From Botryllus schlosseri (taxonomy: Eukaryota): DNA of 64,000 nt. The stretch spans positions 19,160,001-19,224,000 of the forward strand of contig CM119372.1 of NCBI GenBank assembly GCA_051294905.1, given 5' to 3'. The notes beneath the pieces are model-generated. The model ran no database searches, had not been told where the DNA came from, and saw only the letters and a list, made by a program, of their open reading frames with translations. The translations under genes were made by a program, and so were the position numbers. This document shows, one piece after another, positions 1 through 45,662 of the stretch; positions within the stretch are counted from its first letter, which is position 1, and every line of letters starts with the position of its first letter.

Positions 1-2894
1 ACCGTTTTTCACTCCGAAATACCCGTCGGAGCTTCACTTCTGTGCTAATTTGCGGCATATCACTCGCAATTTGCTATAAATCTGACCTAAATTTTCAAAA
101 AAGAGGACAAAATCTCAAAAAAGAGGACAAAAGGGCGTCCTCTGAGGACACTTTCAAAAAAGTCAAAAAAGAGGACAAATCCTCTTAAAAGAGGACGTAT
201 GGTAAGCCTACCTTATCATATTCACACACGGCCCTACTTGAAACGGGCAACAACTGCTATATCGCAATCTTATACTCAGCATTTGAATCTGCCACTATAG
301 CCATCCGCTTACACACCATGTTAGCTTGGATTGCAGCTAGAATCAGTACCGAAACAGCATTTCGCCACACCATTCTCACAAATGTTTTCTTGCCCCCCCA
401 TAAGACGATCAATAAAGCTTGTGGCGGGCAAAGTCCCTCAGACCCCCTTTAACGACCGGGCTTTTCACAAGAACTGGAAACACGATTTGATGCGATATGG
501 ATTCGCTGTGTATTTACTGTCAAGTCGCGCCAAGCGCGAATATTTAGGCACGTAACTTTCAACTATAAATGTATTGTATGTTGTTAATTCGTGACCTCCT
601 GTCTACTATATGTCAAAAGATATTGGAGTCGCCCAAACGTAGCAGACGAAAAGAAAACTAAACGAAAAACTTTCGTGAGACGCACCCAGAAATTGTCATT
701 TATACTTGCGGTTCATCATTTTCCTCAGTGGGTGCCCCCGGTGGCATTTGTATTGAGGGGCAGAGATTGAGAAGACTATTCTTCGCAACCATCCAGCGCG
801 GCTATGGACAAATACACAATGTTTCGGTCAATGTAGCATGTCTTGGTGTGTTGCGGCGCGGTATTAGCCGGCGGTGTGTTGCGGCGCGGTATTGGCCGGC
901 ACCGAAATGCCTATTTCTGCGTAAATCATGCAATTGTATATTATGTCATATACAGGAAATGACGTCATGATGTCTCATTTAAAAAGAAAGACCTTCTCTC
1001 ATGAGGCCTTTTCATCGCATTGTTGTCTTCCAATGATAGCTTCTCAGAAGCAAAATAAATGTAATCGTGAGTAATCGTGATTACTTTTCCAAAGTAATCG
1101 TAATCGTAATCGACTACTTGCGGATTTTGCTGTAATCGTAATCGTAATCGTAATCGCGTGATTCAGAAGTAATCGTAATCGCAATCGATTACATTCATGA
1201 AGTAATCACCCCATGTCTGGTATTTATATCTTGATGTTGTGTGAAGGCGGGTCAAGCTCACAGCGGAGAGTGACTACATATTCACAAGCGGAAAGGTGGA
1301 TATTTCTAGCAAACTTTTTCATCAAAGCAAATAAAAAATTTTAGATTGTCAAGGTGCATGCTCGTTTAGTATTGATTTTTGTATGCTGCCAGCGTCATGC
1401 ATGGAGTGGCCCGCAGTTGAAATGCAATAAATTTCAACCAAAGATGGATGTTGTAATGACGTGAAAATTGAGATATATGAAAAAGGTTCACAGTGCAGAA
1501 CATACCAAGGTTCGTGTGTGAACGTGAACCTCTAAATTTCTGAGGTTCACACACAGAACGCGAACGTGAACCTCACGTTCACATCATCCCTACTAATAAT
1601 CTATATCATCTCTGAATCACTTGTAAGCGTTCTATTGACTCGATGTTGGCCGCGTGCAATCGCTAAGCTCAGTTCCCCTATCGCCCGGATACTAGGATGG
1701 GGTTCGTACCTTTGGCCGTCTTGCATCAGTTCGTTCAAATCATGGATCGTAGAGTTGAATACATAGATCGTCTAGCGCAGCCTTGGATTTGATGATGAGT
1801 GGGTTTGGTTCGGTTTATTTAACACATACAACAGTGGTGTTTATCGCCTATTAAGGTCATGTACACCACGACAATGATATCAGTAATGTTCAGGTTCTTT
1901 GCTTTTCCGTATTCTTTCCGGACGACTTCCACACTCGCGCGCTCCCAACTTCAGTGTCTCTCTCTCTCTCTCTCTCTCTTTCATGCATCCTGACTTGTTC
2001 TATACTGCCGACTTCTTACTGGCGCGGTCACCATCATACTGGGCTTTTCGAGACACTGCTATTGCAGTGAGGTTAGCGATGAGAAGCTCAGGTAAACCTC
2101 CGACACACAGAAGATGGTTCGAACCGGGTGAGAGTGGGTACGAAGACGCGGTGTTTATTGTAGTGTAGAAAGCGCGCTCTGCTGTCTCGAAAGTAGCGCT
2201 AGATTCCCGCATGAATTTGTCAACATGCTGCTTGCTGAGCACCTCTTGATTGGATGCTTGCAGTGTTGCAATATAGTATCATGATACCATATCGATGTCA
2301 GTCAGCCCTTGTGTTTTTTTAACTGACTGTTGTACGTATCCCAGAGTGTCTGTCCAATACTTGCATTGAAGTTTGAACGAACGACGATCAACTGAATATA
2401 ATCCAGCAAATCGTTAATAAAAACACTATGCCCGCCCATACACCTGTGTTAAACGTCGGCGATTCCGAGGGTTCCAACCATTCCATATCGCATACGCTGG
2501 CTATACTGGGTGCAAATCGTCCGTGGGCTCATACTACAGGTTTTTCTAAAAGTATTTACACAATTATGGCATAATTAGTTCTATAACACTTTTTTAATTT
2601 TTTTCAATAATTATTTTTCAATCTTGTTTTTTAAACCGTCAGTATCATATGCAGGGCTGTGGAGTCGGAGTCGGAGTCGGTGGAGTCGGAGTCGGAGTCG
2701 GGGTCGGAGTCGTGGAAAAAGTACTGACTGGAGTCGGAGTCGGAGTTAGTGAAAATGACCCCGCCTTCGACTCCGACTCCGACTCCAACTTCTTTATCAT
2801 GTAAACAATTTCTTTACAAAGATATCTTTTATATTACTAATATCAACTATAATAGGATTTTTATGTACTATCAATCACTGTTATTAGTAACGAT

Positions 2895-5429
2895 TAGGGA
2901 TGGTGTGAACCTCTGAAAGGTTCGGGTTCGTGTGAACGCGAACCTTTTTGAAAGGTTCTGTGTGGACACGAACGTGAACCTCGTGACGTCATATTGCTAA
3001 TTCCAACCCTATCTTTCAATGAAGTGATAGCCTTCAGGGGCGGGCAACTTCTCCAGCCGGCGGCCCGGATATAGGAAAATTAAGTACTTGGAGGGCCGGA
3101 TTGCTGAATCGACACATTATTCGCCCATTTATCCAAATACACAAGGAATAAATCGTATTTAATGAATGTATTTTAACGACAGTAATGTCACTTCAAAGCC
3201 ATTTCTCGCCGATAATGACGAGGATATAATGTGGATTTGAGAACAGCATTGTCATACAGGCGCCGCCATGTCTGCTTCTCTCTGATCATACATCTCTGAT
3301 CAACTATATGGTGTGGACACAAGCAAATCTCACGGCTCAGTGAAATTGGTCTACGTCACACTTTCCATTTGGTCAAAGGCAATTTGACGGTAGTTTTTGA
3401 CCGACTTGCCGAGCATTAAATTTCATAAAACGGGTATCAATCGAAAGCTATCGCGGTGCTGATTGCGAAAATATAAATTCTATTCTGCTCGAGGTTATGG
3501 AACCCCCAAAATCAGCCTTGAATGTTGCATTGTAACGGAGTTTCGTATTGTGACGCAGCCATGCCGTCTGAGCAGCTTAGGAGCAAGCGCGCACGAGAGT
3601 TAGAGTATGAATGCTCAATTGCTCAATCGGTTGCGCAGCAATGGCCAATACGCACGCGGTTTACTCTGCTCCTCACCTGCTCCCAGACGGCATGGTTGCG
3701 TCACAATACCAACCTCCGTTACAATGCAACATTCGAAGCTGATTTTGGGGTTCCGGGACCACGAGCAGAATAGAATTTATATTTTCGCAATTAGTACCGC
3801 GGTAGCTTTCGATTAATACCCGTTTTATCAATTTTCATGCTGGGCAAGCCGGTCAAAAATTACCGCCACATTGCCTTTGACCAAAGGGAAAGTGTGACGT
3901 AGACCTATTTCACTAAGCCGTGAGATTTGCTTTTGTACACACCTTATAGGACACTATACGCTGTGCTCAATCAACTCACGGCTCAATCCGTAATTATTAT
4001 TTCAAGGTGTTCGATAAGCCCGGTACCCCAAATTTACCAACATATCAATTCATTAGGGCTGAGTAGGTGATGAGATAGCGTAGTTGTTCATCCATGTGGC
4101 CTATTTTATCTCGATAATAAATTCATGCGGACCGCGGCATCTACGAAATTTGAAAAGTGGCCCGCGACCCGTTTTGAGTTGGCGTCCCTGGCATAAGCGG
4201 TGTCTTACAAAAGCCTACAAGTGTGCCGTGCTACAAGTCGGCGGTTACGGAATCAAAACTTATAAATATCGGTCTGGTGTAAATGACCATTGTAGTCTAC
4301 CAACACCATGATTTCCACAAACGATATTAGGGTTGAGTACATCGTAAGTGCCGATAATGCAAGTCTTCTCGCTTCGACGAACTTACGTGCAAGCTCCACT
4401 CGCACGCTGCGCATACAAATAACATACAGTCACTAAAATTTGAGGAAGTAAGCAAGTAGCGGGGTATCTCGGCAGACTGTAGCCGCGGGCCACATTATAA
4501 TATAAGACGGAAAACTGTCCGCGGACCGGACAAAATCACTTCGCGGGCCGGATCCGGGCCGGATGTTGCCCACCCCTGGCCTATATTAACGTACACGATA
4601 CCTAGCGAAGACTCGGGCCACATAATGTCGCATTGCTGTAGTAGGCTACATATTGGCGTTTTAAACGTCGCTAAATGTATCAACCGCGGTTATCAAAGGA
4701 TATAATAATCTCATGAAATCAATACATTCCGTCGCTTTGCCAACAATTTCGACGAGGACTTACCAAGCTTACGCCTCAATGGTCTTAGCCAGACCGGACA
4801 ATGTGTTCGGAGTCTGAGTATTGCTACATTGATGTTGAGCCGAGTGTAAAACGGGTTTCTATACTCGCTACCGATACCATAAACAACAAGTTATATAGCA
4901 GTAGCCAGCACCTTAATCGCACGGATTTGGTTTTAATGATACAGTAAAGATATGAAGTCAAGATTGACCCCGTACGCCCACTCGATATTTTACATCAGAA
5001 AACGATATCGATGTCATTGATTGGTTGAATAAGCATCATTCGCTGACTACGTATATCGCTCGTGATGTTGTGTGATTGCGGGTCAAGCTCACAGCGGAGA
5101 GTCATTAAATATTCAAAACGGAACGCTGAATATTTCGAGAAATTTTTGGTAACAAAAAAGCAAGTAAAACCTTTAAGGTTGTCATGGTGCATGCTCGTTT
5201 AGTGTTGATTTTTTATGCTGCCAGCGCCATGCATAGAGTGACCCGCAGTTGAAATGCAATAAACTTGAACCAAAGAGATCTTATAACGAAGTGCAAATTA
5301 CAATTTACCAAAAAGGTTCACAGTGCAGAACCTACCAAGGTTCTGTTGTGAACGCGAACCTCTAAATTTCCGAGGTTCACACACAGAACACGAACGTGAA
5401 CCTCACGTTCACAGTTCACACCATCCCTA
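2895..5429. mobile_element. Nested hAT element (TAGGGATGGTGTGAAC TIR)
   Basis: 8-bp TSD GTAACGAT; its right arm is also present at ~1225-1593. Confidence 0.85.
3304..3957. mobile_element. Foldback element (P/Galileo-like family), left terminus eroded
   Basis: Long inverted arms homologous to 46067-46652. Confidence 0.75.
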
Positions 5430-5448
5430 GTAACGATAGCCTACAGAT

Positions 5449-6306
5449 CAGGGTAAGCCAGACCGTGCCCCCCGCAGGCCAAATGTGGCCCGCGAGAAGG
5501 TTTTGTGTGGCATGCGATGTAATTCTCGAAATTAGATATAACATCTGGTAAAATTGCAAGGCCAACCAACATTTGATTAGCCTGACATCGAAATTTGATG
5601 ATGACTGAAACATCAGTCTCGATGCATTGGCGTAACCAGGGGCCAGCCACATTCAGCGCAGATCTTCGTATATGACCATAAAGTAGAATATTCCGTAGCA
5701 GATTTATTTGACTTGAAATTTTTCTTAGCACTTCGCATGATTTATTGTCACATTTCTTGCATTTAGTAGTGGAAACCCTCCTAGAGATTATAAATACGCG
5801 TAATTTAAAGAATTGAGTCCAACTATACTCGCAATTAGGAGATAAACTGATAAAGTGTCGTCCAACACGGGACTTCGCTTGTGCGCTCGAAGCGAGATCG
5901 TCGGCGATGAATCAAGAGCGGGTTCACCGAAACTGCCGATATTGCTATGTCTAAAACGCCAAATAATCTTGTCCTAGCGAAATGATCCCCTTGCTATACA
6001 GTAGGCCTAATGGTCCAGTAATATATTTATTGATCGAACTAATTCATCACCTTGAAAAAATTTCGTGCTTCGCGCGACCAGGGCCTGACTGCACAGTGCA
6101 CACTCTGTACAGTTGCACACTGAGTTTTCATGACATAGTTGTTATCAATTTTAAAACGTAGTCATATAAGTCTTGTTTTCAATGTTACCGAATTCGGTTC
6201 GTTCCTAATGGGAGACTCTAAAAAAAGGTTATCAACATTCAAGTTGCCCGCGCAATGGTTCGTAAATCTCATGCGACCCTTTAGCCGAAAAGGTTGGCCA
6301 CCCCTG
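5449..6306. mobile_element. Charlie-like hAT MITE
   Basis: CAGGG...CCCCTG ends, GGCCCGC subterminal motifs, degenerate TSD. Confidence 0.55.
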
Positions 6307-6982
6307 ACATAGATAGAATTGAACATTATTTGCAAAATACAATTCAGTTGCATAGAGGAAGAAAGAAGCAATATGCATCTTCGCGATGCAGTCACAAATT
6401 GATGCAATTTTTGGATTTATACCATGATATTGTGACAGAGTAAATATATCGTTTGGTTGTAAAATTGATGTAAATATACAACAGACGCTCCTTCCCACTT
6501 GACAAAAGTAAAAATATTTGTGGTTTAGCTTAGCTGCTTGGGCCGAACAAATGATTAAGAAAGACTGCTAGTCCTGGTCCTTGAATACTTGACTAAGTGC
6601 GTTGCGTAGACTAGACATATGCTATTTGGCTACTTCCTAAATTTCGTTTATGACCGATGTCTGTTAGTAGTGAGAGTGTGTGCGCTTGTAATCAGTACAG
6701 TGTGTAATGAGAAAATTAGTAAGTTACATCTCTGGCTGACTCATACACAAGAGCAACACTTCGATTGTTTAATCTACATTTTAATTATACAGTATATGGG
6801 GTATGTCGTGGTCGAATGATTCATACATATTAGGTTAATAAAGAGTCCATGTTATGAAAACTGATAAAATATAAAGATTTTTTTTTTTTAAATGTAGAAA
6901 GGCAATCTTTCATGCATAGTGAATAATTCGAGCTGTGCCACAATGAAACAATTTTGCGTGGCATCCTTGCATATGTTTATTG

Positions 6983-7340
6983 GGGGGAGATAGCGTAGTG
7001 GTGACGATAAGCGCCTACCAAGCAGGCGGTTCTGGTCGATTCCCGTCTGAGGTTCATTTGGGCTCCTCTCCCTCGCTATCGTTCTTACGGCCCAGAAAAA
7101 AAAGACCCGAAGAAAGAGAGCAAGCACTCACAAGGAATGGAAAGAACTAGTAGAAAGGGCCGCCCGCGGCTTCAAAAAGATCAACATCGAAAAAGAACTC
7201 TAGGCCGTGTTTGAGTACAGGATCGCTACTGATCCGTGTCGTTCGACATCCTATCTGTTCGTTACATTGCATTGTGTCTTATCACATTGTATGTGTAGCT
7301 TGTTCAGATGAAAATTATAACCGAATGTATTATTGTTATA
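6983..7340 (+). mobile_element. tRNA-derived SINE, family A
   Basis: A box TAGCGTAGTGG and a B-box-like motif; body shared with 22416, 27270 (-) and 35315. Confidence 0.75.
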
Positions 7341-8980
7341 TGATAGTCATTCAACCATCACTCTGGCATATTATATTCGAGGTAAATTGGTAATACTGTT
7401 GGAGTCGGTATTTTTAAAGACGATGGAGTCGGAGTCGGTACGTTTAAAGACCCAGGAGTCGGAGTCGGAGTCGGTGCTAAAATTTACCGACTCCACATCC
7501 CTGATCATATGTGTCCTCTTTTCTCGCATTTCGAGTCAGTGGCCTTGTATTTATTTTCAAGAAATTACTGTAGCTATGAAACATGCTGAATTGCTGGTTC
7601 AAATAGCCTTTTCAACAAATTGCTCTACCAATCCTACTTTCTTTGATTGTCGTTGCAAACATTCTCTGTCACGCGTGTGGGCCTTTACATGCGAGTAGTC
7701 TATCTGGCGCAATTTCTAACTTAACAAACCCTAACGAAAGAACCGCTATAAAACGCAGTCGCCTCGACAAGTTCGTTGTTTTACATGCGCGACATCATAA
7801 TTCGTATACCTAAGTGTTGGAGGTTTATCTAGGCTCCCCATCACCACCTCATCCGCGTAAGCGGTGTCTTACAAAAAGCCAAGAAGTGGGCGGTGCTATA
7901 AGTCGGCCGTTGAGGAATAAAAATGAAGAATATCGGCCTGGTGTAAATGACCATAGTAGTCGACAAGCACCATGGACACAAAACACCTCAAAACAAACAA
8001 ACAAGCCGGGTCCACGATTACGCTATCTTATCGTTGCTGTATGGGATACTTATTACGTCGCGAATACTGTGGTTTTGGACCGGTCATGCCATCCCAGTCG
8101 TTTTACCTTTCCTTCGGCAGCTATTAGCCTGCTATAGGTTGGCATCTGCCAAACATAATATTACGTAGTTTTCTTGGATGATGGTCCGGCAAGTTATTTC
8201 TACGAAACTTTGACCTGCATAGAGTGTAGGGATTTGGTGAGCTAATTCCAGCGCTGCAATAAATATTTCCAAATTGAACCCTCAGCGAACGAGTCATCAG
8301 TGGTCGAGCTTCGAGCTATATTTCCACGACAAGGTTTCAACAGTTGAATTCATTATGATGTCAGCGTAGCTACTGAACATAACATGGAAGGTCTTGAGAT
8401 ATTCCTATGCCTGCGGACCGAAATCGGAAGATTGCAAGCTAACGTGTGAGCCAATAGTTGTTATTTCTGCTCTACTTGAGTAGCATTGCGGACTTCCTTG
8501 ACCACCTCTGCGTAAATCAGTCATCAAATACTGACACGAGCCATTCCGTAGGGGCTCTCAGCTTAGCGCTGGAGAAAATCAAGCTGGGTGATGCATGCAT
8601 TGGACGAATACCGACAGAAGACAGTTGACGCATTTTCTACATTCAAGTGTTTTTTTTTTCAACAAATTACTCGTTACTCATTGACAAAAGTGCATGGCTA
8701 TACAATATATATACTGCAATAGACTACGTAATTCAGGCGAGAAACGCGAAGGACACGTCTAGGAACCGTAAATAAATTTTGCACGAGTTGTTCGCAGTCG
8801 TGGCATTGAACGAGCATGATGAGCCGGCCGCAAATACAACATATGGAAATCAGAGAATTAAAATCGTGTGTATTATTCGACAATACCAACTACGCAACAT
8901 CGGCACCTTACTATACAGGCTGGTAGATAAGTGGGAAAGGTAAACTCGTACCAGATCAAGGCTCAGAATTAGAACTTTGT

Positions 8981-11034: not shown

Positions 11035-11605
11035 CAGGGTTGTAACCAAATCACAAGGCTCCGAGTCACAAGTCAATCTGAATTTTATAGTTTTGACTTG
11101 AGTCAAGTCGAGTCATTTTGAATTCACCACCTAGTCAAGTCCGAGTCCAAGTCACCGAACAGAGGGTCGAGTCCGAGTCATGGTATTATGACTCGAGTCA
11201 GAGTCCAAGTCATTGTGTTGACTGCTCAGTTTCCAGTTAAAGTCTTGTTAAGCCCACTTTTTATAACTCAGTTTGGTGTTATCCAACGGTTCGCATTTAT
11301 AATTTACTAATTTTCCTCACTTTTAGTAGTTTATGGTCGCATTTTCAATTACCAGTACTGATAGACGAAATCCCAACAGTGTAGTAACTTGACTATTCTG
11401 TGAAATTACAATGAAATGTAGGTCTTGGCCGTCTGAGTCTCGAGTCATATGACTTGGTTCGAGTAATGTGCGATGACTCAAGTCCAAATCGAGTCAATAC
11501 ACAGATTGACTCGAGTCGAGTCATTTCCGTATTTTGAGAAAATGACTCGAGTCATCCGAAAATCGTGACTCGAGTCGAGTCATGACTCGAGTCATTACAA
11601 CCCTG
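11035..11605. mobile_element. hAT MITE with GACTCGAGTC subterminal repeats
   Basis: CAGGGTTGTAA TIR; 8-bp TSD AATATACT. Confidence 0.9.
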
Positions 11606-12158: not shown

Positions 12159-13818
12159 CTTAATTCAAAGGAACAGTCATTTCTTTGTGAAACTCATTTG
12201 CTAAACTGAGCCGTGACTTCTGACACAGTCACGGGGATTTGGTAAAATGCAGAATATATCGATGTCTTGAGAGAGGTGAGGTACGGTAACTAAGTTAATT
12301 TCAAGGTAATTTAACACTTTTGATCTTTGGCCAATCAACAAAAACACCAAATTAGCGTATGCATGACACCGTCCACTCAGTACTTCCTAGATAATTTTGA
12401 GACACGCCCCTTTAATGATAGTTGAAAATTTTGCGCCCTACACTACCATTATCACCAAAAAACACGCAATAAAGCAAACAACAAAGCTGTTTGCAAACGT
12501 CTCACGATAGAGAGCTGCATAACTGATTTGACAAGCCAACCAGGACTCTGTACTTGATAACAAGCACCTTTGCCTGAATTTGGATATGCATTCGGCCAAC
12601 GCAGGTTTCGTGCTAGGTTTGAACATCCCATAGTGAACTTGAGTGCCACTTTCATATGGTATTCGTTAAGAGAGTCGTCCGTTAAGAGAGTCGCCCATTA
12701 CTTTTGGTCTGCCTTCATATGTGCCGCTTCTATAAGAGTGACATTCTACCAAGTGCGTCCCAATTGAGGATACTAGACGAGGCTAAGTTGATGTTGTTGA
12801 CAGCTTGGATGCAAAGCTTTGTGACTTAGATTCACAAGGCGTTGGGTACGACGTAGTCGTGCATCGGAATAAAAGCCTATCATAATCACAAGGAAACATT
12901 GAATTTTGCAAGACTTCCTGCCAAAGGACGGATAGCCTCTGGCGAATGGATATTATTCGGCCGTTACTTTCAACTCATGTTTTCTGGTTGGTCTGAGATC
13001 AGGAATCAGTCAAAATCAAGCATCAGTGCTAGTGCACATGGATGATACGACACAATGGTGACGATAAAAATCAATTATTGCCATTTTTAACCACTTCCAA
13101 GTTTCAGCACAGCTTCAAGCTCATTCCCAATTTAAGAAAGCTTTGCTTCCCCGTTAGAATCTTCCAGGTCACACCAAGGAGGCCGCGCCCCCCATTTCAA
13201 GAATCACTGCTCTATATTAGAATCGAATTTCAACAATTTATCTGTGTGTGGCTTCTTCTTACATCCAGTTCCAGCAGTTGAGTGATGACTCGAACCTGCA
13301 TTAGCAATACCATGATGTCCTACTCACAAAACGATCTCCAAAAGAAATAAAATGATAGAAGTGACTAGATCAACTGAATCTCCACGGCGCACAGCAGACT
13401 GCAATAACTGAGCAGAATGTGGCAATGACCAAAGTTGATATAAACATTGAGCTCATGGTTTTCCATTAAAAATGAACACGCATTAATCACATTGCAAATC
13501 TGATGGATGTGATGCTGATAGTTGATACATCATTTCTCTATACAGACACAATCAAACAAGCTAAGAAATCATTTGGAACCAGTAATAATTGCCTTCACGT
13601 GGGACCACCCTAGTGGGCAATTAATACTAGCATGATCAATAAAGAAAATGGGAATGCACTACATTCTTAGTCGGTCTAAATTTCTGTTATAATTTCACAC
13701 CATAAAACTAGACAGAGGTTCAATGACTAAATTTCAATACAGAAAATAGCATCATCACCGATTGGCATAATGCTGAAAACTATAGCAATGAAAAAAGAAA
13801 ACAATTGACGACACATAC

Positions 13819-14019
13819 CATGATGTGCACCATGATGTCCTCCGTGAGGGTACCCATGCTGTGGAGGGGGTACGTGTCCTGTTGGGTAAGCGCCAGGTGG
13901 TGGAGGACCACCAGGGTGCGGATAGGCCCCCGGCGCAGGTGGGGGTGCATATCCGGCTCCTGGTGGAGGAGCATATCCCGGAGCTCCCGGTGGTGGGTAC
14001 CCTTGGGGTGGTGGGTAAC
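13819..14019 (-). CDS. PRR13: PRR13-like protein, coding exon 2 (GYPPP repeats ... HGGHHGAHHG)
   Basis: TTTTACCAG acceptor, G|GTATGT donor, 201 nt, phase 1/1; lies within ORF 13727..14101. Confidence 0.85.
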
Positions 14020-14385
14020 CTGGTAAAATGATACCAGAGTAATGACTAGTGCGGTCGATTACAAAGCATGATATAAACCACGAGTTTGCAGAGAAGTACA
14101 TGGCTATAGGCCTTTATATGTAAAAGACTGACTCTGGATATAGGCCTACTTCGGGTCAGGGGTTGGGGTTAGTACAAAACACCAGAAGAAACGTAATACT
14201 GGTATAATGTAATGCTAGTAGCGTGTCAAAGCGATTTTGCATAGTCTATCAATCAAACGCCTCCCTTGAACAAAAGATACCGACATAAAAAGATGAACGG
14301 GTTAAGACAGGGTTGTCAAATCCAATTTGGGTCAAGAACCTACCCACAAGTATTTTTCTCATTTGCTCAACATTGCCTCACAGGT

Positions 14386-15757: not shown

Positions 15758-17559
15758 AGGGAGCTCGATAACTCTTTCAGCTACTAAAATAAATACCGTT
15801 CACCGAGCTAAACTGAAATTCTGTTGTAAATATTTCCCGATATTTTGGCATCGGATGTCAATCACGAGACCATGACGATAAATCTATTGATGCGTGTCAT
15901 GGAAAAAAATTGAGGAAAAATAATTTATAACGAGTTGACACCACTGGGCTATATAAACACGCTATAATACCGTAGCCTTTATAAAGTAGGGTTACCATTA
16001 CCATACGTCCTCCTTTAGGAGGATATGGGTGGAGCCCAATTCTTCTCCTCAACGAAGTACTGCTTAAATGCGAATCTCCACTCAACTAAAAATCGATTGG
16101 TACTCAGCGTTGAGTTATAGATAACTAAGGTAAACCTAAAAACTAAGGTTTACCTTAGTTATCTATAGTTGAGTGCGCGCCAATTCTCTCTGCTCAGCTA
16201 AGTATCGATTTCCAGACGTCGTTTTCCGAGATAGCGTTGCCAGATTTTTTTCGCCTTCGATCGGACACGCGTGAACGATTTTGTCATGACAACACGACGC
16301 TGTCGTCATTATTTCGTCACTGATGTAAAAACTAGACGCAGTTCTCACTGATTTATCTAAATGCAATGAATAGCCTCAGCTGATCCACACTCTTTGAAGA
16401 TGACCCAATAGAAATATATAAATCCTTGAAGATACCCGGGACGTTCCTATGCCCCACAGAAGTATATTTGCAAGACGCTCCATGCCCATTCGAAATATAT
16501 AAAGATAAGTTTCACAGCAGGCGAACACGTAAGTGCAGGCCTGAAATAACAAAAGAATGCATCTATATCGTGAACATAAATTGAAAAATTAACATATTTC
16601 CAGGATTTCTTTCCAATTGAAGCTCCTCTTTGAACCATTCACTTTGCCCCTCTACCATTCAACTTCCCGATATAGCTAGACCCACCCGACATTTTCTCCC
16701 TTAAATATCCAGTATCTCCTATTTCCTATATCTTATGGCAGTGGCTATTCGTCCGGAACCGGACGAATAGCCCGCAGCCACAGTGCAGGCTATTCGTCCG
16801 GAACCGTGTGACGTAACTATCCGAAATTAATGTTTCGTGTGACGTAACTGTTAAAAACCAACATACTGCATACGCTGGCATTATTGAGTATTGAGTATTG
16901 ACGGACTTCGGCTGTTTGTGTTTAGGTTATCGCATCGGTACACAATAGCGCCATGCTCTTAAATATATCGAATACATTGCTTATATGGCAGCACACAGTG
17001 AATCTCAAAGACACAGTACACGATGCGTGAGCAATGAGCATGAGCAGTGAGCACGCGGTACATTGTGCAGTTCAATGATTTCCAGTCCAACATTGTCCAC
17101 TGCTATGCGATGGTACCATCCGAAGAAAAAATTAAGCAAAGCACCGCATCTCTGCTATGCTACCTCTGCTTTGCAGACTTACCGACAAATAATCGCCGTC
17201 TTCTCCCAAAAGCAATTTTTGTGGTGCATTGAACTGATAGAAAATGCTAATAAACCGAACTGAACTGATACTAGACCTGGTATTTGGACACTGGTTCAAC
17301 TCGCCCTGTTTTCATCTCTATCTTTCCAGTCCAGCACGTCTGCTAGAAGATGAAGTTATATATCGTAACACGCATATATGTTCCTACAGGACTATTGCCA
17401 GTAGCGAACTCGGCACTTGGTGAACTTGGTAACAATTCGGCATATATCGATAAATATCATGTAACTGTATGGTATGCACAGGAACATGAACAGACCAGGT
17501 GATGATCCGACTAATATAATCCTATTGTTATCTGAGTATATTCATAGTTCCAACAGGGA

Positions 17560-18529: not shown

Positions 18530-18860
18530 GGATATCTTTTTCTTGTCCGCTAATGTTCAAATCATATCTTGTGCATACCTTGTGCTGAAGTACAACTTAA
18601 ATATATCTTTTTCTTGTCCAGTCATGTTCAAATCATATCTTGTGCATACCTTGTGCTGAAGTACAACTTAAATATATCTTTTTCTTGTCCAGTCATGTTC
18701 AAATCATATTTTGTGCAAACCTTGTGCTGAAGCACCACTTAAATATATATTTTTCCTGTCCAGTCATGTCCAAATCATATCTTGTGCATACCTTGTGCTA
18801 AAGCACAACTTCAATACATCTTTTTCTTGTGCATACCTTGTGCTGAAGCACAACTTTTTC
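18530..18860. repeat. 71-bp subterminal tandem array (~4.5 copies)
   Basis: TCTTGTCC recurs at 18541, 18612 and 18683. Confidence 0.9.
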
Positions 18861-19138
18861 TTGGCTAAATTTTGTCGAATGCTGAAAATATATTTGTGAG
18901 GAATATCGAATTCGATTATTGCTTCCTATTATGGTAGAGTGGCGTTTATAAATGTCAAGTAGATTATATTGAATTTTTACTCTTATAGGGCGAATTAGTC
19001 ACCTATAGCATAGTCGTTTACAGCAGTAAACGTGCTGTAAACGACTATGCCTATAGTGTCACTACCGAATGTTCCACCTAGTGCCACGCTGTTCTTGCGA
19101 TTTTGCAGGCTAAACTTCAATATCATATTAGCCCACAT

Positions 19139-23011: not shown

Positions 23012-26000
23012 CTCAATGTTACTCGGTCAGGGCGGCATGGTATTTAAATACGTACGGTGAACATTGTGACGTGTTTTGTTTTCGATCGCTGGATGAAGCC
23101 GAATACAGAGTCAACTAGGGGGCAACGCGGCAGTGAAGACTTTAGTGACTGAAAAACACATCGATGAACTCTCGTCGGTGTCCTTTCAATGACAGCTCTA
23201 ACCCGTAGTAATAGAGGGTCAAAGGACGAAGGAAATTCTTCCACTTCAAGTTCGAGTACATTTTATCGACACACACTATAGCCTACTGGTTGCATTTTCT
23301 GCATACTTCTACTTCTACTTGAACAGTTTTCGATTCAAAACAGGCCTATAATACTGACTTTCTACCAAGTTTGAAGTCGCTACTTGTACTACTTGAGTAG
23401 CAACGTTGATTACTCTTATCACCGCTACCCATAGTTGAATGTCTTCTCTGTCACAACTCAAACATATAGGTCGCTAAGGGAATAAATTCTGGTTGCGATC
23501 GCATTAGCGCGATCGTTAAACATTTATGTGATATTTGTTACATATCATCCAACAATGTCCTATGTAGCCTACATTTTGTATATTTTCAACGTCACTGTGT
23601 TGGGTACCACAGGTCCACAGCCAATGATCCAGAAACGCTGAAAAGTGGTTACGGCAATACGGATTATTAATTATGAAGACGCTCGACTAATGCACGGACA
23701 GGGTAGAGCGAGTTAAAGACCATATGATGCCCATATAAACTACGTTTTCTACGTCCGACACACAGTCAGAGTTCAACAGCTTATATATCTTGACTTCAAT
23801 AGCTATTCATGTGCATTACGTTAATTATTTCACTGAATACTGTTTTTGGTCTCTACGTTTTCAACTTGAAGTTCACATTAAACACGGTTTGTTCCTTGTA
23901 TAGGTGGAGAAATAGGCGAATAGTATTATGATTGAGGAAAGCGTTCCGCAAAGTACTTCATTTTCCCATATCAGCCCACGCCCGCCATATATGATAGGTT
24001 TGTAGATGAACGTATAGTCAGAATAACGATTCGTGTATTGTCAGACCTGGTGTCATAGGTTCACGGCATTGAATAAATGTTGAGTATTGCGAAATCGAGA
24101 GACCCGTATGCCGAGTCAACCGGAGGTCAACGCAGCTGCTAAGACAGATTGCTATATTGGTGACCCTGACATCGCACCTGAAATCCATCTAAAGAGAATT
24201 ACGTCACTCGGTATCGCCATGCAATTTCAACGCGTATACTTGCAAATTGTTAATTGCTGTATGGAATCGACACGATCTCTACTGTGTATACTTCACAATA
24301 TTTTGAAGAGTAGTTTTGCCTACTGGTAGTTCAGAGACGTCCAGCCAGATAATTTTGAACTTTCAATTTGCCGTCGAGAAAATCAATATTATTAGGTTGG
24401 CAATGAACATTCCAAAGTCCCGTTCACCAAGACATACCGCGCCTTTATCGTGTAGCACGCAATAGACATTAGAATTGACCGTAGCGGTAGCCCAATTACG
24501 TTCTATCGACCTAAATATATTATGGACGTATACTATAGATAAGTTTGAATATGTCATTATGCAATATTGGGTTGGCTAGTGCCAATTTTCTGATGACATT
24601 CGTTTTCTGTGTGACACAATGGATTCCGATGAAGATCATCATTCTTCGAAGGGTATATATCGCCTTGCCTCAGTTGGTCGTTCACGTGCTGGCAGAAAGT
24701 CCGGTCCACTATAACATTATTAAGGTCAATCTCTATCCCAGCGATGCAAGCCTATATAATCTTGATTCCATTATAGATAATTAACTAACATACGGTAGGT
24801 CAGTTATCTCTAATTCCATATGGTCGTGTTAACCATGAATGCGTGTATTGACTTCACCTCTCGATTCGAGACTTTCTATCTATATGTAAAATATATTCGA
24901 TATTGAAATACGCCGTGGAAATAAGTTTGGGAAAGACATCGCTAAAAGCCTCGAAGGCCATCCCGACAGTCGTCAAGAACGTCCACATTCAAATCTCAAT
25001 TTGATATATCGGCCCATCATTCCGAAACATGCCACTTCATTAGGCTATCATCCCATCACTTCTGTTACTTTATATTCAGTGTCCAACTGCCCATCCTACA
25101 AGGCTACAACGACGTAAGTGCCTCTTTACATTGTCTTATGGCTACAGGAAGTGTGGTGTCCGAATGTCCGGTTTCAACGACTACTAAATATCGTTTCAAT
25201 ACCTTCCAATTTTTTCGTTCAATCGCAATCTTTTCGTGTATTCGAAAGGATGAAATATCAACATACTGATTATCATCAGTTTGCTCCAGCATCACCTATC
25301 GCAAAGTATGTCCTAGCGGCACGAGCCTGCAGGCTTGAATTCACCCGCTTATGTTTTTCCATCGTTTGTAATGATGACTCCGCGTGAATTGACGTAACCT
25401 ATTGATTCAATAGGCATCATATTAATCACTCGCTTATATTTGAATCAGTTTTGTAATGAACTAGAACGATCTACCAAACGATCAACCAAACGCATATAAT
25501 TACTTTTTCTCTACTGCTATAATCAATCAAAGTAATCAATTCATTTATGTTATAGGATGACGATAAAGGGGAAACAGGAGCAAGACTGTTATCGAGGAGG
25601 CTGAAGATTTCGATACCGATAACATGGACTAATGCTAATGCAGAAATATTTGCTGAAGTGATTGCGCAGTTCTGTATCAAGGCCCAATTCTTGCTAACGT
25701 ATTTTCTTCATCCAAGTTTTTTTTGGCGTGTTTTGTACTGATTTCATACAGAACAGAAAGCCATAAACATGATTTTTAAAATTGGCGATTAGTTTTCATT
25801 CTGAATCAAGGCCTACCTCTTGCTAACGTATGTTGTGTGTTGTGTCACGGACTGTTATTTTACCGTCATTCTTCATCCATTTTTATTCCAATTTTCCGTC
25901 GAGGTCTAGTCCAGTGTATTTTTTTTGTATTTTAAACTGGTATAATACAGAACAAAATGCCATACATGATTTGTAAAACTGGCGATTTGTATTCGTTCAA

Positions 26001-26081
26001 ATGTGAAGTGCAGCATATAGCAGGTTCAACCAACCAGGGTTCAGGGTCACACAGGGTCGAGTTCTACAAAAAATATCTTCT

Positions 26082-26187
26082 AGGATATCTTTGAGGATGT
26101 TTATCAGGATATATTTGAGGATGTTTATCAGGATATCTTTGAGCATGTCCATCAGGATATCTTTGAGGATGTCCTTCAGGACATCTT
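26082..26187. repeat. 24-bp subterminal tandem array (AGGATATCTTTGAGGATGTTTATC, ~4.4 copies)
   Basis: Read directly from the sequence. Confidence 0.9.
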
Positions 26188-26193
26188 ATTCGT

Positions 26194-26442
26194 CGCAGTG
26201 GAATCAAAGTATCTTATGTCCATTTTACAGATTTTGAGAAAATTAACTTTGAGTGAAGTTTTCAGCTTCTTTCAGCCATATATTGACCCCGATTAACTTT
26301 GATACACTCAAACAGACATAACTATGGCTAAGATATGACCGAAAGAAATGCAAAAATTTTCGAAAAGTATATTTCTTTCAAGTTTGAAAAAGGGAGCTTC
26401 AAAATTTGAAAACTGGACATAAGATACTTTGATTCCACTGCG
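26194..26442. mobile_element. MITE with ~30-bp TIR (CGCAGTGGAATCAAAGTATCTTATGTCCA)
   Basis: Perfect inverted ends; TSD ambiguous. Confidence 0.8.
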
Positions 26443-27590: not shown

Positions 27591-30270
27591 TGAGACTGCA
27601 GGAGTTACCGTTCCGGTATACCGGGATGCCGTACGACAAGAAGTCGAAAGGGTACAAGATAATTACAAATACAATAAACACAACATCCGTCCAAGCGCCA
27701 CTGATTTCATTTGCTCAGCAGAACCTCACATCACGAAATAGTGCACCTATATCAGCTATATACGACAGTACCGGTACTACGGTATTTGGCGGGTGTTGCC
27801 TGCAGTTGGCTGCTCGACCGTGAAAATTGACACTTAAGTCTGGTGGTGCGCTGACTTAGATTTGAGTGCCGATCTGGACGCATTTGAGTGTGAGTATACT
27901 TTTTGGCGTGAGTTGAGTAACGAAATCGTTGCTGAGTAGAGAATCGCTACTCAGCAGAGAAATTGGGCTCCACCCTATGTCCTCTTTTTTGAGGTTTTTG
28001 AAAATGTCCTCGGAGGATGCCTAGTTGTCCTCCTTTTTGAGATTTTGTTTTCTTTTTTGAGAATTTTGGTTAAATATAGGGCAAAATTCGATTGAGATAC
28101 AGTAAATCAGCACTCAAGAAACGCTCCGGTGGCTATATCGGCAGTTGTGCGAGAAAGTTGACTTTTTTTCAAGTCAACCGACCACGCAGTGGTAAAAATT
28201 TACCATTTTTTCAAGATTTTCCTCCGGTATTCTAAGTTTGAAAATTTTGAAAAAGTGTCCTCTTTTCGCGATTCCAAAATATGGTAACCCTATTATAAAG
28301 GCTATGATAATATCCATTAAGAAATGATATGCAATACACCTTTGCGATGTATACATTTTTATTATACATTCTTTGTGATGTCGGGTTACCATATTTTTCT
28401 GGCCCAAATTCCTGACGCTCTTTAGCGCCTACTAGCGGATTTCAAAATGAGCTATGAGCACATTGTCGATCGATTTGCCGTCACACCAGCAAAGGTTTGT
28501 CTATCGACAAGAGGTGGTCACGATCCGGTTCAGGAGGATGTGGTTGTGCGTTGTAAGTTGTAACCAGGACCGAAGCCACATTTGTTCAGCCCCCTCCCGC
28601 CCAAATAAACACTGATCTTGAGCCCACCGCAGGGTAATCGATGCCACTTCCGGGATTTACTGTATGCCTCTGGTCGTTAAATGACTTGAATGAATTATTT
28701 CAATAATATTGGTTCTTCCATATATTAATGTATAATTTTGATCCTCTCTCCACCCAGATGATCAGAGTTTGCGGCAGTGGCAGTGGCGTGGCAATCACTT
28801 GGCGAATATGGCTCTGCGTCATATGGGCGGCAGGCTACTAGGGGCGGCAAAATGTGAGGTGATGACCTTTTTTTAGTAAACACAACAAGATTTCCAGTAA
28901 CTGCGAAATTGAATAGATCGAAACTATTACAAAATTTGACGGCATTTTCAACGAAAGTCATGGGCGGCAGCTTATATGCTGCTACGCCACAGGTTAGCGA
29001 TAGAGCTGGTGGAGGGGAATGACTTCGAAAATACAAGGAGCGTAATAGTAGCCTACATCGTTAAGTCATGTTCATATCACAACGATAATATTATTTATCA
29101 GTTTAAGGCAGGTGCGCACTGCACCACTGAGCTATATAAACACCGCACATCCGGTGATTTCCAACCTTTCATGGTCGCGACTCCATTTCCAATTTGAAAA
29201 TGTTCCGTGGCTCAGCTCAAAATTGGATGAGCTGATTACAAATTAAAGGTCGGCATATTTGCTAAGACTTACTCACGGGCTATTTTGGAAGATGATTTCG
29301 TTCAGCATCTTCGTGAACCACAGAATAAAGGTAAACTACCCCAGGTTTAGAACCACTATCTTCAAATAATGTATCCAAACGGCCTAAACCGACTCTGTGA
29401 AATTACCGTTATCTTGTAATTGCGATAACAATTAGACTTGAAATGAATGTCATTTCTACTTATTTTTGATCGCAGTTTTTGCGAGGGTGGTAATCCCCAT
29501 ATATTAAGACTAGAGGTCGACCGATATTGATTTTTACAGGCCGATACCGATACCGATATTTCGACGCTCACAAGGCCGATAACCGATATCATAGGCCGAT
29601 ATTAATATGGAAGGAGCAGCCCAGCAAACACAGTACAGACCAAAGATGTAGAAAAGCCGAGCCGATATAGTAGATATTAGATCTCGGCAGGTCGTAGAAA
29701 GGGGGATTTTGTGTCGACTCAATTCAACGTCTTTTCCATGTCCTTCAATAATGTAAATATTATGCAGATGCTACAGCCTTTAAACATGGTGAGTAGAATG
29801 TAGATCCTACGTTAGAAGAAGAAGATCCTGATATAATAACCTGTTTTCTACCACTATGGGCTTAACCTGATCACGGCTGCGTACACACACCACATTATTT
29901 ACTACATATTAATCACATTTGTGATAATTTAATTTCAAACGAATTGGCAATAATGCCGTTATAAAAAATAAAACGAACAAACGAACGAATGTCTTTAGAA
30001 AGAAAGTGAAAACAGTCCTTATAATCAGGTTTCATCTTCTGATGAGCCAGTTAAATAACCAGCATGCGGCCTTTTCTTTTCAACACCCTGCAGAAATAAA
30101 ATGAAAATGATGATTAATAGCTAAGACATTCCTATTGCGAAAATGGCAGAGGTAGCGACTAACGAATGACTCCTACATTTTTTTCGCCCATACCTACTAA
30201 AATGGATTCGATTCTGAACTATTTCCACTCAAGTTTTCAAGTTTTATTATTATATTTTTTAATATTATAT

Positions 30271-30480
30271 GACTAGAGAACTGACTTCAATCGTCACTTC
30301 TACTTGATTATCAAGATCAACGATGACTACTTCAGCACTCTTTGAAAACAGCCACTAACACAAAAAGAATTCTTGACTAGAGAACTGACTTCAATCGCCA
30401 CTTCTACTTGTGTATCAAGATCAACGATGACTACTTCAGGAATCTTTGAAAACAGCTACTAACACATATTGTCACTTGAC
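30271..30480. repeat. 104-bp tandem duplication
   Basis: GACTAGAGAACTGACTTCAATCG at 30271 and 30375. Confidence 0.9.
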
Positions 30481-31871
30481 TATATTGCGGGCTTGTTGTA
30501 TTTCGCTGGGCTAAGTTTGCGAGGACTGGGCTATTCGGCACATGGACATATCGATATCGAAAGATGCGAGCAGCATGCATCAATCATTTCGTGCCTAGGT
30601 TTCATAGTCGACGGTCTTACTGCGAGCGCAAACTCAATGTCGCATATGTTGAACGACAATTTGTCTCGTAATCGTGAATATAGTTTGACTTAATCTGATA
30701 CAGTAGGAGTTCTTCCATTTTCACAAAAGGGCAACAATATTAAAAACAAGAAATCGAGTGACAACATGTTGCGCCAAGCTTGTAGAAAATTTTTACCTTT
30801 GATAAATCTATCGCTAATTATTCTGCTTTATTGTAGTGTACGAAGATATACCAATATGTGAATGGCTGATCGATCTGTCAATGTGCCGGAACTGATATTT
30901 TAGTCATCACATCTCAAATGTTGCGGCCAGACCAATCAAATTTTTGGTTGGCCTTGCATGTTCAATTGCAATCAATTTTTGATGATATTAGAAATTTCGG
31001 AAATTGCCTCGCGGGCCACTCAAAACCTTCTCCCGGGCCACATGTGGCCCGCGGGCCACGGGTTGGCCGGCCCTGATTTACGGTGACCGATTCTTTGTTT
31101 ACTTATTAAAGTTGTGCTCACCGTAAGTACTATTTTATTAAAATCCAAATTTTTCGACAGCAATAACTCCGCTTCCACTGGTTGGAATTGAACCAAATTT
31201 GGTGAGCATCGTTTCTATAGACAGCTTAACACTTTCATGGGGTTAACAGAAAATCTTCAAATTTTTTATTATTCATTTTTATATAATAAATAGGAACTTT
31301 CTTCTCTTGTAGCAAAGCGGATACTGGCTGGAATTGAACCAAATTTTGTTTGTAGGCTTAAATTAGGTAACCTAACAATTTTATCAAGTAGCCAGTACGA
31401 TTTGAGAAAAAAAGTCATTTTTGAAGAGCCCTACTGTTCATGACCGTCCACGTTTAGAGTTGCATCTCAAAGATGCTAAAATAAGCCTAAATATAATCCA
31501 AGAAATACGATCGTCCACTTTGACTGACTGAATTTCTAAAAACACCTTGATAGCTTCCACATCTTACGTTTATATATACCGTCTGCTATCGGCACAACAA
31601 AGTAGGCCTATTTAAAAATAACAAAACAGATTCAACATACCACATCTCTTGCAAAGGCTTTTGCTTTCATTCAATTTGCCATCAAATCTCTTTAAATGCT
31701 CCTTTGTGGTGAGTTGCTTTGGAATTCTTCTAGGATCAATTCCGATATCGTTTTATCATGTACAATCTATGGCGGAATAAAAGTTTCTGATAAGTTCTAA
31801 AACGAACACAATTTTCCACACAAAAGTCAATTGCCACACGAAATGCCAAATGCTACGGTCTCATTTTACAA

Positions 31872-33050
31872 GGTATGGCGAGGAAACGTAGTGGTACGTT
31901 CCATTATAGCTAAACACCAATGAATTGCGGGTTCGAGCGTGACACGTCGACTCCATAATTCCTACCGAAGTGTTGGCCGTTTATCTAGGCTCCTCCTCGC
32001 CATCTGATTCGCATAGCCATGTCTTAAAAAGCCTAGGAGTGGGCCGTCCTATAAGTGGGCAGATGGTTGCCGATGCACTCGGCACTTGGTGAATTCGGCC
32101 GCACAAACTCGCCACTTGGTGAATTCGGCCCTCGGGAAATTTTGAAATGAAGTGTATTAACAGCTATTAATATGAATTATCAAACTAATAATAGTATTAT
32201 CAAGTGATTCGTCAATCTTGTAAGGAGGTCAGGGCATCCGTAGATCGCGCAGTCACGGCGTGATTAGACCACGGATTGCGTAGCCACGGGAAATAACACA
32301 GCGCTCATATACCGACCACGCGCGGTCTGCTTGGAATCGATGGCGTGAGTCACGGGCCTGTGTCGTGTAAGTTTTGAGAAGATGGATCTTGGCGTTGTAT
32401 GTGAGATCAAAACTGTGGAACATCAAGCGGCGCTTCTTCGTTTATCGATCACGACAAGCCAGTGTTCCTCATCAACAAATGTTTCGCATGATCACGTCAA
32501 AATAAATTATTTTTGCCTTTGGAGAGACGATTCCACTCTGGGATTAGGGTGTCTCGATAACACGGTTGAAGGATCCCAAGATTACGAGATCTACCTTGAG
32601 CCACGTCATGTTTAAATTTCCTTTTTGATACTGTTCATTCATATTAAATGCATTTCTAATGCGAAGGTGTTCTAGTGCCAATTCCTCCAAGGGCCGAGTT
32701 CACCAAGTGAAGAGCGTCGCGTTATTTCCCGCAATTACGCAATCTGTGATCTAATCACGCCGTGACTGTGTGATCTACGCATGCCCTGACCACCGTACAA
32801 CATTGACAACCACTCAAAGTGCCAAGTTCACCGGCAAACATTCCAGTAACCAATAATGGTGACCGGTACCGCTACGAGATCTACCACGGCCGAATTCACC
32901 AAGTGCCGAGTTTGTGCGGCCGAATTCACTAAGTGCCGAGTTCACTGGTAATCGGGCAGATACGGAATAATAATAATAAGAACCGGCCTGGTGTAAAATG
33001 ACCAGTGTAGTCGAACCACCACCATGAACACCACAAACAAACAAATAAAC
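31872..33050 (+). mobile_element. tRNA-derived SINE family B, split by a MITE
   Basis: A/B-box-like head and (CAAA)n tail; partial copies at ~4190-4320, 7800-8005, 40835-41010 and 50845-50975. Confidence 0.7.
32065..32953. mobile_element. Merlin/Mutator-like MITE
   Basis: Inverted ends with repeated CACTTGGTGAATTCGGCC; 8-bp TSD GGGCAGAT. Confidence 0.8.
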
Positions 33051-35314
33051 ATCTAACATGGAAAAGAAATTACCTTTGCAGCCTTTGACAAACATGCAGT
33101 TACCATTGAAACCAGCAATTTAGGTCTTATTCGAAAGCAGAATAACAACTGTTTTAGTGGACATATCAAATCAAATGTTGGAAAGTTCATGTAAAATAGC
33201 CCAAAATATTATCTTACTGTGACCATATTCCATCAATATGGTCTGGCTAGCCAAATTCTCTGGGCCAACATAAACAAGCTGCGTTTGGTTTCAACGATTA
33301 ATAATCTTGTCACTGGATTCGAGGTATAATTGCACTCAAATATCAAATTTTGCTCCATTAATCAACATCAAGTTGAAAATGTCCATTCTTGCACCAACTT
33401 TTATAAAATCATGAATCAGTGTTCTACAGGAATGTATCTATATGACTTATATACCTAGAAAATTCAAGCATAAATATTATGATATACCGTAGGTATAGGT
33501 ACCGGTAATTCAGATGCTTAAAGCGAATTATAGTGGTCTAATTTCACTAAATTAGAGCGAAATGCCAGCAATATAATTGTAATCTAATTCGGAAAAAACG
33601 GTTTAGCTCTAATTCTAACCTGGAAAAGCTGAAACTTTTCTATAGTTGTCTACACCTGTTTTGTAGAAAGTCAAACAGCTCTAGGCGTCATATACTACAG
33701 GCAATTCGAAATACCCCATAAGCTATATGCTACTGCATATATACCTTTAACCCGCTACCTCAGTCAGTCACAATTCCTATATATTTACGGCATTTACCAT
33801 ACAGAAAGAGCGAACTGTGCCTGGCTGCGACCTGTTGCGCGTCAAATCTTTGTATGGCGCGATGACGTAAAATTTGAATCGCCGAAATATTCTAGAAGTC
33901 ACGCATCGATAATCATATTCCTAAACGTACAACATCTGACTTATTTAGTTATTCTCTGAATAAAACTATTAGCCATACTCGTTGAACATGCGAGATTACC
34001 GAAAGAGCGAATATATATATAATGAAGATCATATATATCAGAAGAAAACAGAACTATTCGACCTTAGAGCAACAACACGAATATACAACACCGGTGACAT
34101 CCTCACGCAATAAAACGAAGGGAGAACATTGTTTTCTAATAGATAGAACGAAGCTACCGCATGAGATCGAACAAAACCGGATAGAATTCATCGTGATTGA
34201 ATGTACCGACAAAGTCATCCTTTCTACGTATTTTAGTCGTACCCTCGAGAGATAGAAAATTTGCATTATTAGGTTAACTACCGGATATAACGAAGCCTAA
34301 TGCATGAGATGGAACAACACCGAGTATGAATTTATTCTGATTGAATATAACCACAAGACCATCCTACTACGTATTTTAGACATTCCCTCGACACTTAGAA
34401 AATCAGAACCTAATCGAGATGATCCCGGATGATCCTTTTACGGTTTTGTGTTTGCTGGGAGAGAACTATTTCGCCAAAAATATTATATATTAGGCAAGGT
34501 GGCACTTGTTCATGCCACAGAAAGGTGAACAACAAACGAGAAAACTGAAATCGAAAAGACTTATTCCTTAATTGTGAACATTCGTTGAAATTTGGGATAA
34601 CCCGAAAATCAAAACATGATACAGAATTGCAGATCAGTTCAGAAAAGGTAGATTGTAGTTAGATATAAAATATCGGTCGCGATATCGGCCTAGATTGGCC
34701 GATACCGATATTCGAGAAAGTTCCAAATATCGGCGCCGATAATCGGCCAAGCCGATAATCGGTCGACCTCTAATTAAGACCGACATGTGTGATACTAAAC
34801 TACGAGTGGCGCGAAAAAAATCATGAAGCATAGATCTGCCCCCAAATTTTTTTATTTATATTGATTTACGAAAAAATTATGAGCTTACTTCAAGCCTTCA
34901 AAATTCCGGACATTTCTGCATATTTTTGAAATTCGTCCCGGACGCAGTTTCAACAGTGAAATTCCGGACGTATGGTAACCCTGATGTATATATATATTAC
35001 TATAAATCTTTATCCTCTCGGAATTGTCAGATTTTCCGGTAGAGCTGCTGAGTGAGGTGTCGTCTTCGGAAATGCAGGGCACGTAGAAAGAAATAAACGT
35101 ATTCGTGTGGGCCTGTTGAAATAATTACTTCGTTGCCAGGATCGTAACTAGCGCACCCCAAACCACCCACTTCGGGGGCGAGCTCGAAGGGGGCCCAATA
35201 TTATTTCGTGAATTACCAAAAATTATAAAGTTCTTTTTTTGAAAATTTATGCAACTTTTTCAAAATTAAAAAAAAAGTCATTGCGGACCGGGGATTGAGA
35301 ACGACCGATTTAGG

Positions 35315-44363: not shown

Positions 44364-45662
44364 ATGCGCATGCTGTGCGGAGTGCAGAAGGCGCTATAGA
44401 GCGGATAAAGAAAGTATAGCCTACGTGAGGGATTGGTATTGAGAAGTGTTCGTATACGAACAATGTAAAATCGTAGGTATGCGTGCCAAGAGTTTACTGT
44501 CTTCCTGCATCCTTGAGTCTTTAAAAGTACTTCTCGGAGAGATTTATCTGTTTGCTTCCATTCTTGTGTTCGTCCTACTTTTTGTCACTGTGTAATTTAC
44601 TTTGCAATATTTACAAAACACGAATGAAATCTGAGTATATAGTCAAATGTCTGCAGAAGAACAGAGTTTGAATCTATATATTTGAAATTGAATACGTCTT
44701 AGGTCAATTTTTCGAGCTAATCAAATCCTGCTGTGAAACTAGTGTTTCACAACTAAACAGCAGAAAATTTGAACAGAACATAGCAAGGTCCGGCAACAGA
44801 GGTGGTCAGTAAAGAAGTATGCTTCTACAATTTTGGAGTAGGTTTTGCCAACTAACACTACTTACTCAATTATTATGATTGCATACTACTTGTACTTCTA
44901 CGTATAGGCCTGGACCTAAAATATGTAGAATTGTGATAGATACTTTACTTTCGGACCTGGTTACAACGCACAGATAACCAGGTAACCGCACCACCCTCAC
45001 ACACTAACAGTATTACAGGACTGGGTAACACACGGGCGGATATGGCCCGCCAGACCACTGAAACTATATAAACAGACGATTTGATCCGGACATGATATTC
45101 CTTTTCGCCTGCACCATCGAAATGCTTTGACGACGGAGATGCGACACGACCGTGAGGTCACCTAGTCTGCACCCCCGTTTTTTCTCCTCCATGCTCATCC
45201 GTGGTTGCTGGGCGCGTAGCAGGGTAGCTGCGGATACCAATTTTCAAGTCTTTGGTATGACCCGGCCAGGAATCGAACCCATGCCCTACCGCAGGGTTGT
45301 AATGACTCGAGTCATGACTCGACTCGAGTCAGACTCGAGTCACGTTTTTTTTGTGACTCGACTTGACTCGAGTCATTTTCTTGAAATGGGAAAATGACTC
45401 GACTCGACTCGAGTCAATATTTGGATTGACTCGACTTGTACTCGAGTCATTACGCATGACTCGACCCAAGTCAACGACTCGGCTTATTTTATATGACTTG
45501 AGGATGAATAAATTTGCGAATCGTAATGGCTAGTTCAACACATCTGACGAATTCTGCCGACATCGCTATTTGTCACCACTGCTTTCGTTGCACTCGTCTG
45601 ATATCAGATATGCCGCCGCAAAAACAAGAGACAATGGTACCATAGTGTCCTATATTATAGAT

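Follow-up and report, generated by a model that had tools for sequence, protein, structure and literature searches.

The 41-nt hairpin at positions 19009-19049 is probably a donor-site repair scar, left behind when a P-superfamily element of the 7-bp-duplication type, like Galileo, was excised from a copy of a dispersed host repeat. Specifically, a longer parent element would formerly have occupied the site, a P-type transposase would have cut it out, and polymerase-theta-type joining would have closed the junction; that this parent belonged to the P superfamily is likely. The scar reading is supported because the low copy number of the hairpin and its varied, arm-templated junctions match the repair products of the Drosophila P element. 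The hairpin lies in a 64,000-nucleotide stretch of Botryllus schlosseri DNA (the window), together with three other hairpins and a longer element of the same end type. Scars of this kind would record the loss of elements, which is rarely visible in genomes, and hairpins of 35-52 bp are easily mistaken for tiny MITEs.

Structure and Genomic Context of the Hairpin

Two copies of the 7-mer CCTATAG, at 19002-19008 and 19050-19056 (both on the + strand), bracket the 41 nt, in which fully complementary 17-nt arms, the candidate left (19009-19025, + strand) and right (19033-19049, - strand) retained ends of the element, surround a 7-nt loop at 19026-19032 (+ strand). The loop has the same letters as positions 19037-19043 of the right arm. 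The exact repeat, the 17-nt arms, and the loop that copies an arm had all been described in the original prediction and were confirmed in the sequence. A scan of the whole window for inserts of <150 nt with perfect arms of at least 8 nt and a direct repeat of at least 5 nt returned 14 rows, in which this hairpin (hereafter family A) is counted twice, in two registers, and most of the rest are simple-repeat MITEs; each of three order-4 Markov copies of the window returned 0. The fold has a z-score of -12.2, with none of 200 shuffles equally stable. Elsewhere in the window, the arm has no further occurrence with up to three mismatches, and Rfam gave 0 matches between 15500 and 25500. A single copy cannot separate the letters of the arm from those of filler, although the pairing spans 17 nt.

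The window is rich in repeats, with 26% of it matching itself, and tandem arrays with periods of 71 bp and 12 bp lie at 18532-18886 and 26058-26201. The hairpin itself is inserted in a high-copy repeat: in runs X1, X2, and X10 the summed contig depth reaches thousands on both host flanks versus 27-345 over the hairpin. The limits given here for this dispersed host repeat (18890-19138) are those of the stretch compared and not the true ends of the repeat.

Empty Sites and Length Variants in Public Sequencing Runs

Contigs of four of the 16 listed public runs (X1, X2, X10, and X11, from three samples) were compared with positions 18890-19138, that is, with the 249 bases around the family A hairpin only, leaving out the other three hairpins of the window; such contigs can show presence, not absence. 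One contig of X2 and one of X11 represent the empty site: they skip exactly 48 nt and hold the 7-mer once, its letters fitting either side, and the X2 contig has 89 letters on its shorter side and a depth of 641.5. Because the empty site holds the 7-mer once, the CCTATAG duplication is a true target-site duplication, as had been supposed. Two further 7-bp duplications, ATGGTAG in X2 and CCGTAAC in X11, were read among the listed loose ends of contigs and put these hairpin copies at sites of their own. A donor-site scar is flanked by both copies of a 7-8-bp duplication, and this is what the empty site, present in two of the four runs, and the two further duplications reveal. Moreover, such a scar is made up of two ends in inverted orientation that bear no relation to the flank, and the family A arms indeed recur between unlike flanks and are foreign to the empty site, which in strict register is weakly palindromic at most (8 of 21). 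A hAT-type flank-hairpin footprint is a palindrome built from flanking host DNA, the ends of the element being lost; this candidate was rejected on the foreignness of the arms to the empty site.

The hairpin is covered by 10 contigs (six of 16 in X10, two of 180 in X1, one of 19 in X2, and one of 15 in X11), and a loop deletion is listed in nine of them. The depths of the deletion-bearing contigs sum to the entire hairpin cover in X10 (345.5) and X1 (26.9), and likewise in X2. The remaining copy, in X11, has other flanks and carries no deletion or substitution among the rows listed; it may represent the same 41-mer inserted elsewhere. The window's own family A allele was not seen in the four runs compared, and the idea of a fixed germline allele finds no support, since all hairpin cover in X1, X2, and X10 comes from other lengths. 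Among the indels listed, the hairpins measure 35, 36 (three contigs), 37 (X1 and X10), 38, and 40 nt, which together with the window copy makes at least six family A lengths between 35 and 41 nt, a narrow range that is partly built in, as the comparison detects hairpins near 41 nt only and decayed copies less than 85% alike escape it. No substitution inside the hairpin is listed in the contigs of the four runs. The 36-nt form occurs in three contigs of one run of the four; its perfect palindrome probably breaks contigs made from 31-letter words, and therefore the three contigs may represent one to three sites.

A MITE is defined by high copy number and uniform size and sequence (PMC3698922), and family A departs from this definition with one to six contigs per run and six lengths. 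The expectation of heterogeneous loops, as opposed to an amplified mini-MITE, thus held, with hairpins of the same arms in five lengths besides that of the window copy and at low copy number, although the X11 copy may repeat the loop. Variable junctions with microhomology and templated inserts are a further mark of donor-site scars, and they are found here as six lengths with filler copied from the arm.

Related Inserts in the Window

The original prediction had announced two more cases in the window; both are present, together with a third, decayed one. The family B hairpin (16116-16167), found by scan and folding, is 52 nt long with perfect 22-nt arms and a 7-bp GTTGAGT duplication (16109-16174 in all). 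The family C hairpin, of 40 nt, spans 45649-47375 with its CCTATAT duplication (copies at 45649-45655 and 47369-47375) and is split into the pieces 45656-45662 and 47336-47368 by a later hAT-type element at 45663-47327; its 40 nt correspond to a 36-nt palindrome plus a 4-nt duplication. The decayed family C copy (24772-24812; 24765-24819 with the ATTCCAT duplication) measures 41 nt, made of 19 + 18 letters and a 4-nt extra, and folds weakly (z -1.6). An end-pair search also identified family D, a palindromic MITE of 586 bp with CATAG ends at 46067-46652, flanked by a GTATTAC duplication (46060-46659), which shows that long elements with this end type exist in the window, although A, B, and C do not stem from it. 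The split family C hairpin sits in the end of a family D MITE, and the intact sister at 46067-46652 holds the family C 7-mer once, therefore providing an empty site for family C inside the window.

The window contains five complete inserts that combine YATAG ends with a 7-bp duplication; four measure 40-52 nt, and the fifth is the 586-bp element. Across the duplications, including the two read from contigs of X2 and X11, 12 of 16 half-sites have either T in the second place or A in the sixth (uncorrected P 0.0002); the place pairs 1/7 and 3/5 show no enrichment.

Several other mobile-element structures were observed. Positions 45641-47699 form a four-layer nest, in which a family D end contains the family C hairpin, which contains the 1,665-bp hAT-type element with its 8-bp duplication, which in turn contains the intact 586-bp family D MITE, and the nest gives the order of events. 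Long palindromic MITEs with 289-nt arms are present, as is a palindromic element with internally repeated arms at 32067-32951. End pairs that start with CAGGG or TAG-G and are flanked by 8-bp duplications, some of them nested, lie at 2652-7503, 2895-5429, 11035-11605, 29511-34772, and 53548-54670, and are probably hAT-type non-autonomous elements. Lastly, a 37-nt insert (16762-16798, within 16742-16806) has 11-nt arms and an 8-bp direct repeat within a duplicated motif; it was left out of the counts because of its other ends, its 8-bp repeat, and its place in the larger duplicated motif.

Search for a Parent Element and Its Transposase

Longer elements sharing the 17-nt termini of family A had been anticipated, and none was found in the window, where no long element with family C ends was found either. 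The exact 17-mer of the family A arm has four matches in viral contigs and 52 in metagenome contigs, and that of family C has two in viral contigs; none of the 52 metagenome or six viral matches is accompanied by the partner arm, and all were taken as chance. The comparison with run contigs is probably blind to elements that match by 17-20 letters only. Among the 100 longest of the 174 stop-to-stop frames of the window, there were 0 P-type Pfam matches, the hits being Kelch repeats and a piece of reverse transcriptase only, and two weak matches below the cut-offs were taken as chance. The Kelch-repeat coding pieces and the reverse-transcriptase fragment lie at 54769-56059 (+) and 63118-63999 (-), and a proline/glycine-rich frame at 13727-14113 (-) has no Pfam match.

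That no transposase is linked to these ends agrees with an origin outside the P superfamily, be it a hAT flank-hairpin footprint, an unclassified element with a 7-bp duplication, or a local template-switch inversion. Such an origin is nevertheless highly improbable, as the arms do not derive from the flank and are found again between unlike flanks, and the window's hAT-type elements differ both in their ends and in duplicating 8 bp.

Apparent Length of the Retained Ends

The Drosophila P transposase is described as cutting one strand 17 nt inside each end (PMC7776569; PMC10983969), and the 17-nt arms had been read as the conservation of this geometry. This finds no support: the hairpin arms seem to exceed 17 nt, the sole measured P cut, with two families apparently needing at least 19 letters of the end and a third 22 or more. 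Specifically, letters 17-20 read ACGT in the perfectly palindromic 36-nt form of family A and likewise in the 36-nt palindrome of family C, which is unrelated to it. The filler ends in CG in the 38-, 40-, and 41-nt forms, where the join to a CG-ending tail would fall. Tails of 17 nt would call for a repeated CG insert in both A and C, and letters 1-17 of the family C arm offer no CG to copy. The simplest account of the compared joins is a tail of 19 nt (join at CG) or 20 nt (join at ACGT); given the scar reading, the odds that the tails measured 19-20 nt and not 17 appear about even. The loop at 19026-19032 would then consist of 4-5 nt of templated filler, and its final 2-3 letters would double as the tip of a right end of 19-20 nt, that is, the 17 paired nucleotides plus 19030/19031-19032.

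Conversely, a P-type transposase could mobilise the 36-nt perfect palindrome itself as a micro-MITE, and the other lengths would then be later changes at its unstable tip. Two unrelated families with the same 36-nt size and ACGT centre would suit this, as would the X11 copy, which may carry the 41-nt loop at another duplication, and the fact that the parents of A and C were not found in the sequences searched; furthermore, most of one filler is common to the 38-, 40-, and 41-nt forms, which could all go back to a single mobile hairpin. A micro-MITE is nonetheless unlikely. The 36-nt form is confined to its three contigs of one run, perhaps one to three sites; five of the six lengths are not 36 nt, yet no arm substitution is listed; and the arm serves as the template of the filler, just as it does in P repair products. 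Moreover, family A hairpins of 36-41 bp are far smaller than the P-type mobile units of the cited literature, as 138 and 216 bp of the ends are required for the mobility of Drosophila P and Anopheles P-MITEs keep <100 bp of each end (PMC1562414), and internal transposase-binding sites would not fit in them.

Of the three families, only B has a visible longer member, a loose end of 115 letters in X11, which the hairpin at 16116 matches at 23 of 24 left-hand and 21 of 22 right-hand letters; because the match extends that far, the 16116 copy appears to keep 22-24 letters of the end. At the same place of the host repeat (19061-19062), X10 has family B ends that would overlap to a 34-nt hairpin (16 + 22 - 4). 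The X11 and X10 sequences would constitute a before-and-after pair, but this draws on two separate contigs, each displayed over 30 letters or fewer, and is also compatible with a long element with one changed letter. This family B insertion lies a few bases from the family A site, and the host spot near 19061 may be a preferred target.

Another explanation, which suits family B best, its 16116 copy keeping more of the end than A and C do, derives the hairpins from longer inverted-repeat elements by extreme internal deletion, through aborted gap repair or the cutting of long cruciforms, and leaves the arm length silent on the cut site. The presence of palindromic MITEs with 289-nt arms speaks for it, and in wild-type flies most products are reported as partial gap repair followed by end joining (PMC2895639). 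However, no insert of the YATAG end type of 53-585 nt was found in the window (n = 5 complete inserts), and an identical join position in two unrelated families suits a cut site better than random deletion, which makes the explanation rather improbable.

Returning to the donor-site scar, the retained ends apparently amount to 19-20 letters in A and C and 22-24 in B, versus the 17-nt rule. A more far-reaching and distinctly tentative possibility is that the P-superfamily transposases here cut with a longer, family-specific stagger than that of Drosophila, of 19-20 nt in A and C and 22 or more in B, and that the tip palindrome steers repair into stereotyped hairpins. If so, natural scars would read out the cut sites of transposases never studied in the test tube. 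No report of a stagger other than 17 nt, or of natural P-type scars outside Drosophila, was found in a literature search that covered subscription journals and the older Drosophila footprint papers thinly. As a whole, the excision-scar reading of the original prediction stands on the true target-site duplication, the varied loops, the low copy number, and the 586-bp CATAG element, while its two additions, the fixation and the conserved 17-nt geometry, find no support.

Proposed Mechanism

In the proposed course of events, a P-superfamily element would insert into the high-copy repeat and would later leave, when a P-type transposase would cut one strand at the end of the element and the other strand some way inside, and each side of the break would keep a single-stranded 3' tail of the element's own end. 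The two tails, identical and not complementary, would be joined in the germline through microhomology-mediated end joining. Joined directly at the small tip palindrome (CG or ACGT), they would yield the 36-nt perfect palindrome; if templated extension first copied the arm as far as CG, aborted, and then annealed to the tip, the 38-, 40-, and 41-nt forms would result. Templated inserts after transposon excision are described as dependent on polymerase theta in flies (PMC2895639) and worms (PMC4490562).

Comparison with Known Systems

The P-MITEs of Anopheles (PMC1562414) and BuT5 (PMC3698922) are non-coding and have P-type ends and target duplications, and family D is of this kind. In these accounts, P-MITEs keep from tens to 100 or more bases per end and are homogeneous in size, whereas the hairpins here retain about 17-24 letters with a variable join. 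Galileo is described with duplications of 7 bp, sometimes 8 bp, and the consensus GTANTAC (PMC4168063); the family D duplication, GTATTAC, matches this consensus, and the T2/A6 bias corresponds to its centre. In contrast, target specificity looks looser here, and the likeness is drawn from the duplications and not from the end sequences; the text consulted of the same source reports no excision scars or cut sites for Galileo. The excision of Tc1 in the C. elegans germline likewise leaves inherited scars with microhomology and templated inserts and involves polymerase theta, but its cut is of the mariner type and leaves no long retained ends; fewer than 10 deletions at known transposon sites are given for 45 wild isolates (PMC4490562).

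The closest counterpart is the Drosophila P element, from which this type of scar is already known, and the hairpin most likely works like a P donor-site scar. Table 1 of PMC2895639 gives 66 isolates of donor-site repair from the P{wa} assay in Rad51 mutants, of which the 45 that keep both duplications were counted, 20 long-microhomology joins and one deletion past the duplication being dropped. The commonest product, with 19 of these 45, is a perfect palindrome 30 or 32 nt long whose join lies at a 2-nt microhomology close to the tip; most of the remaining isolates have templated inserts, and 14 of 45 are 35-44 nt long with inserts, often copied from the arm (PMC2895639). The two systems share both duplications, both ends set tail to tail, and arm-templated inserts, and the size of the fly insert class overlaps that of the hairpins here. 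They differ in that the flies have an 8-bp duplication, 17-nt tails, and palindromes of 30-32 nt, shorter than twice the tail (34), versus a 7-bp duplication, a palindrome of 36 nt, and at least 19 letters of the end here. Furthermore, the Drosophila scars are laboratory events in Rad51 mutants, whereas these are natural, inherited alleles of several families. The 17-nt stagger stands out as the strangest step in P transposition, and the literature found gives its value for the Drosophila enzyme only; if a single animal carries such inherited scars from several unrelated families, sequence alone can test how general long staggers are and whether their length is fixed.
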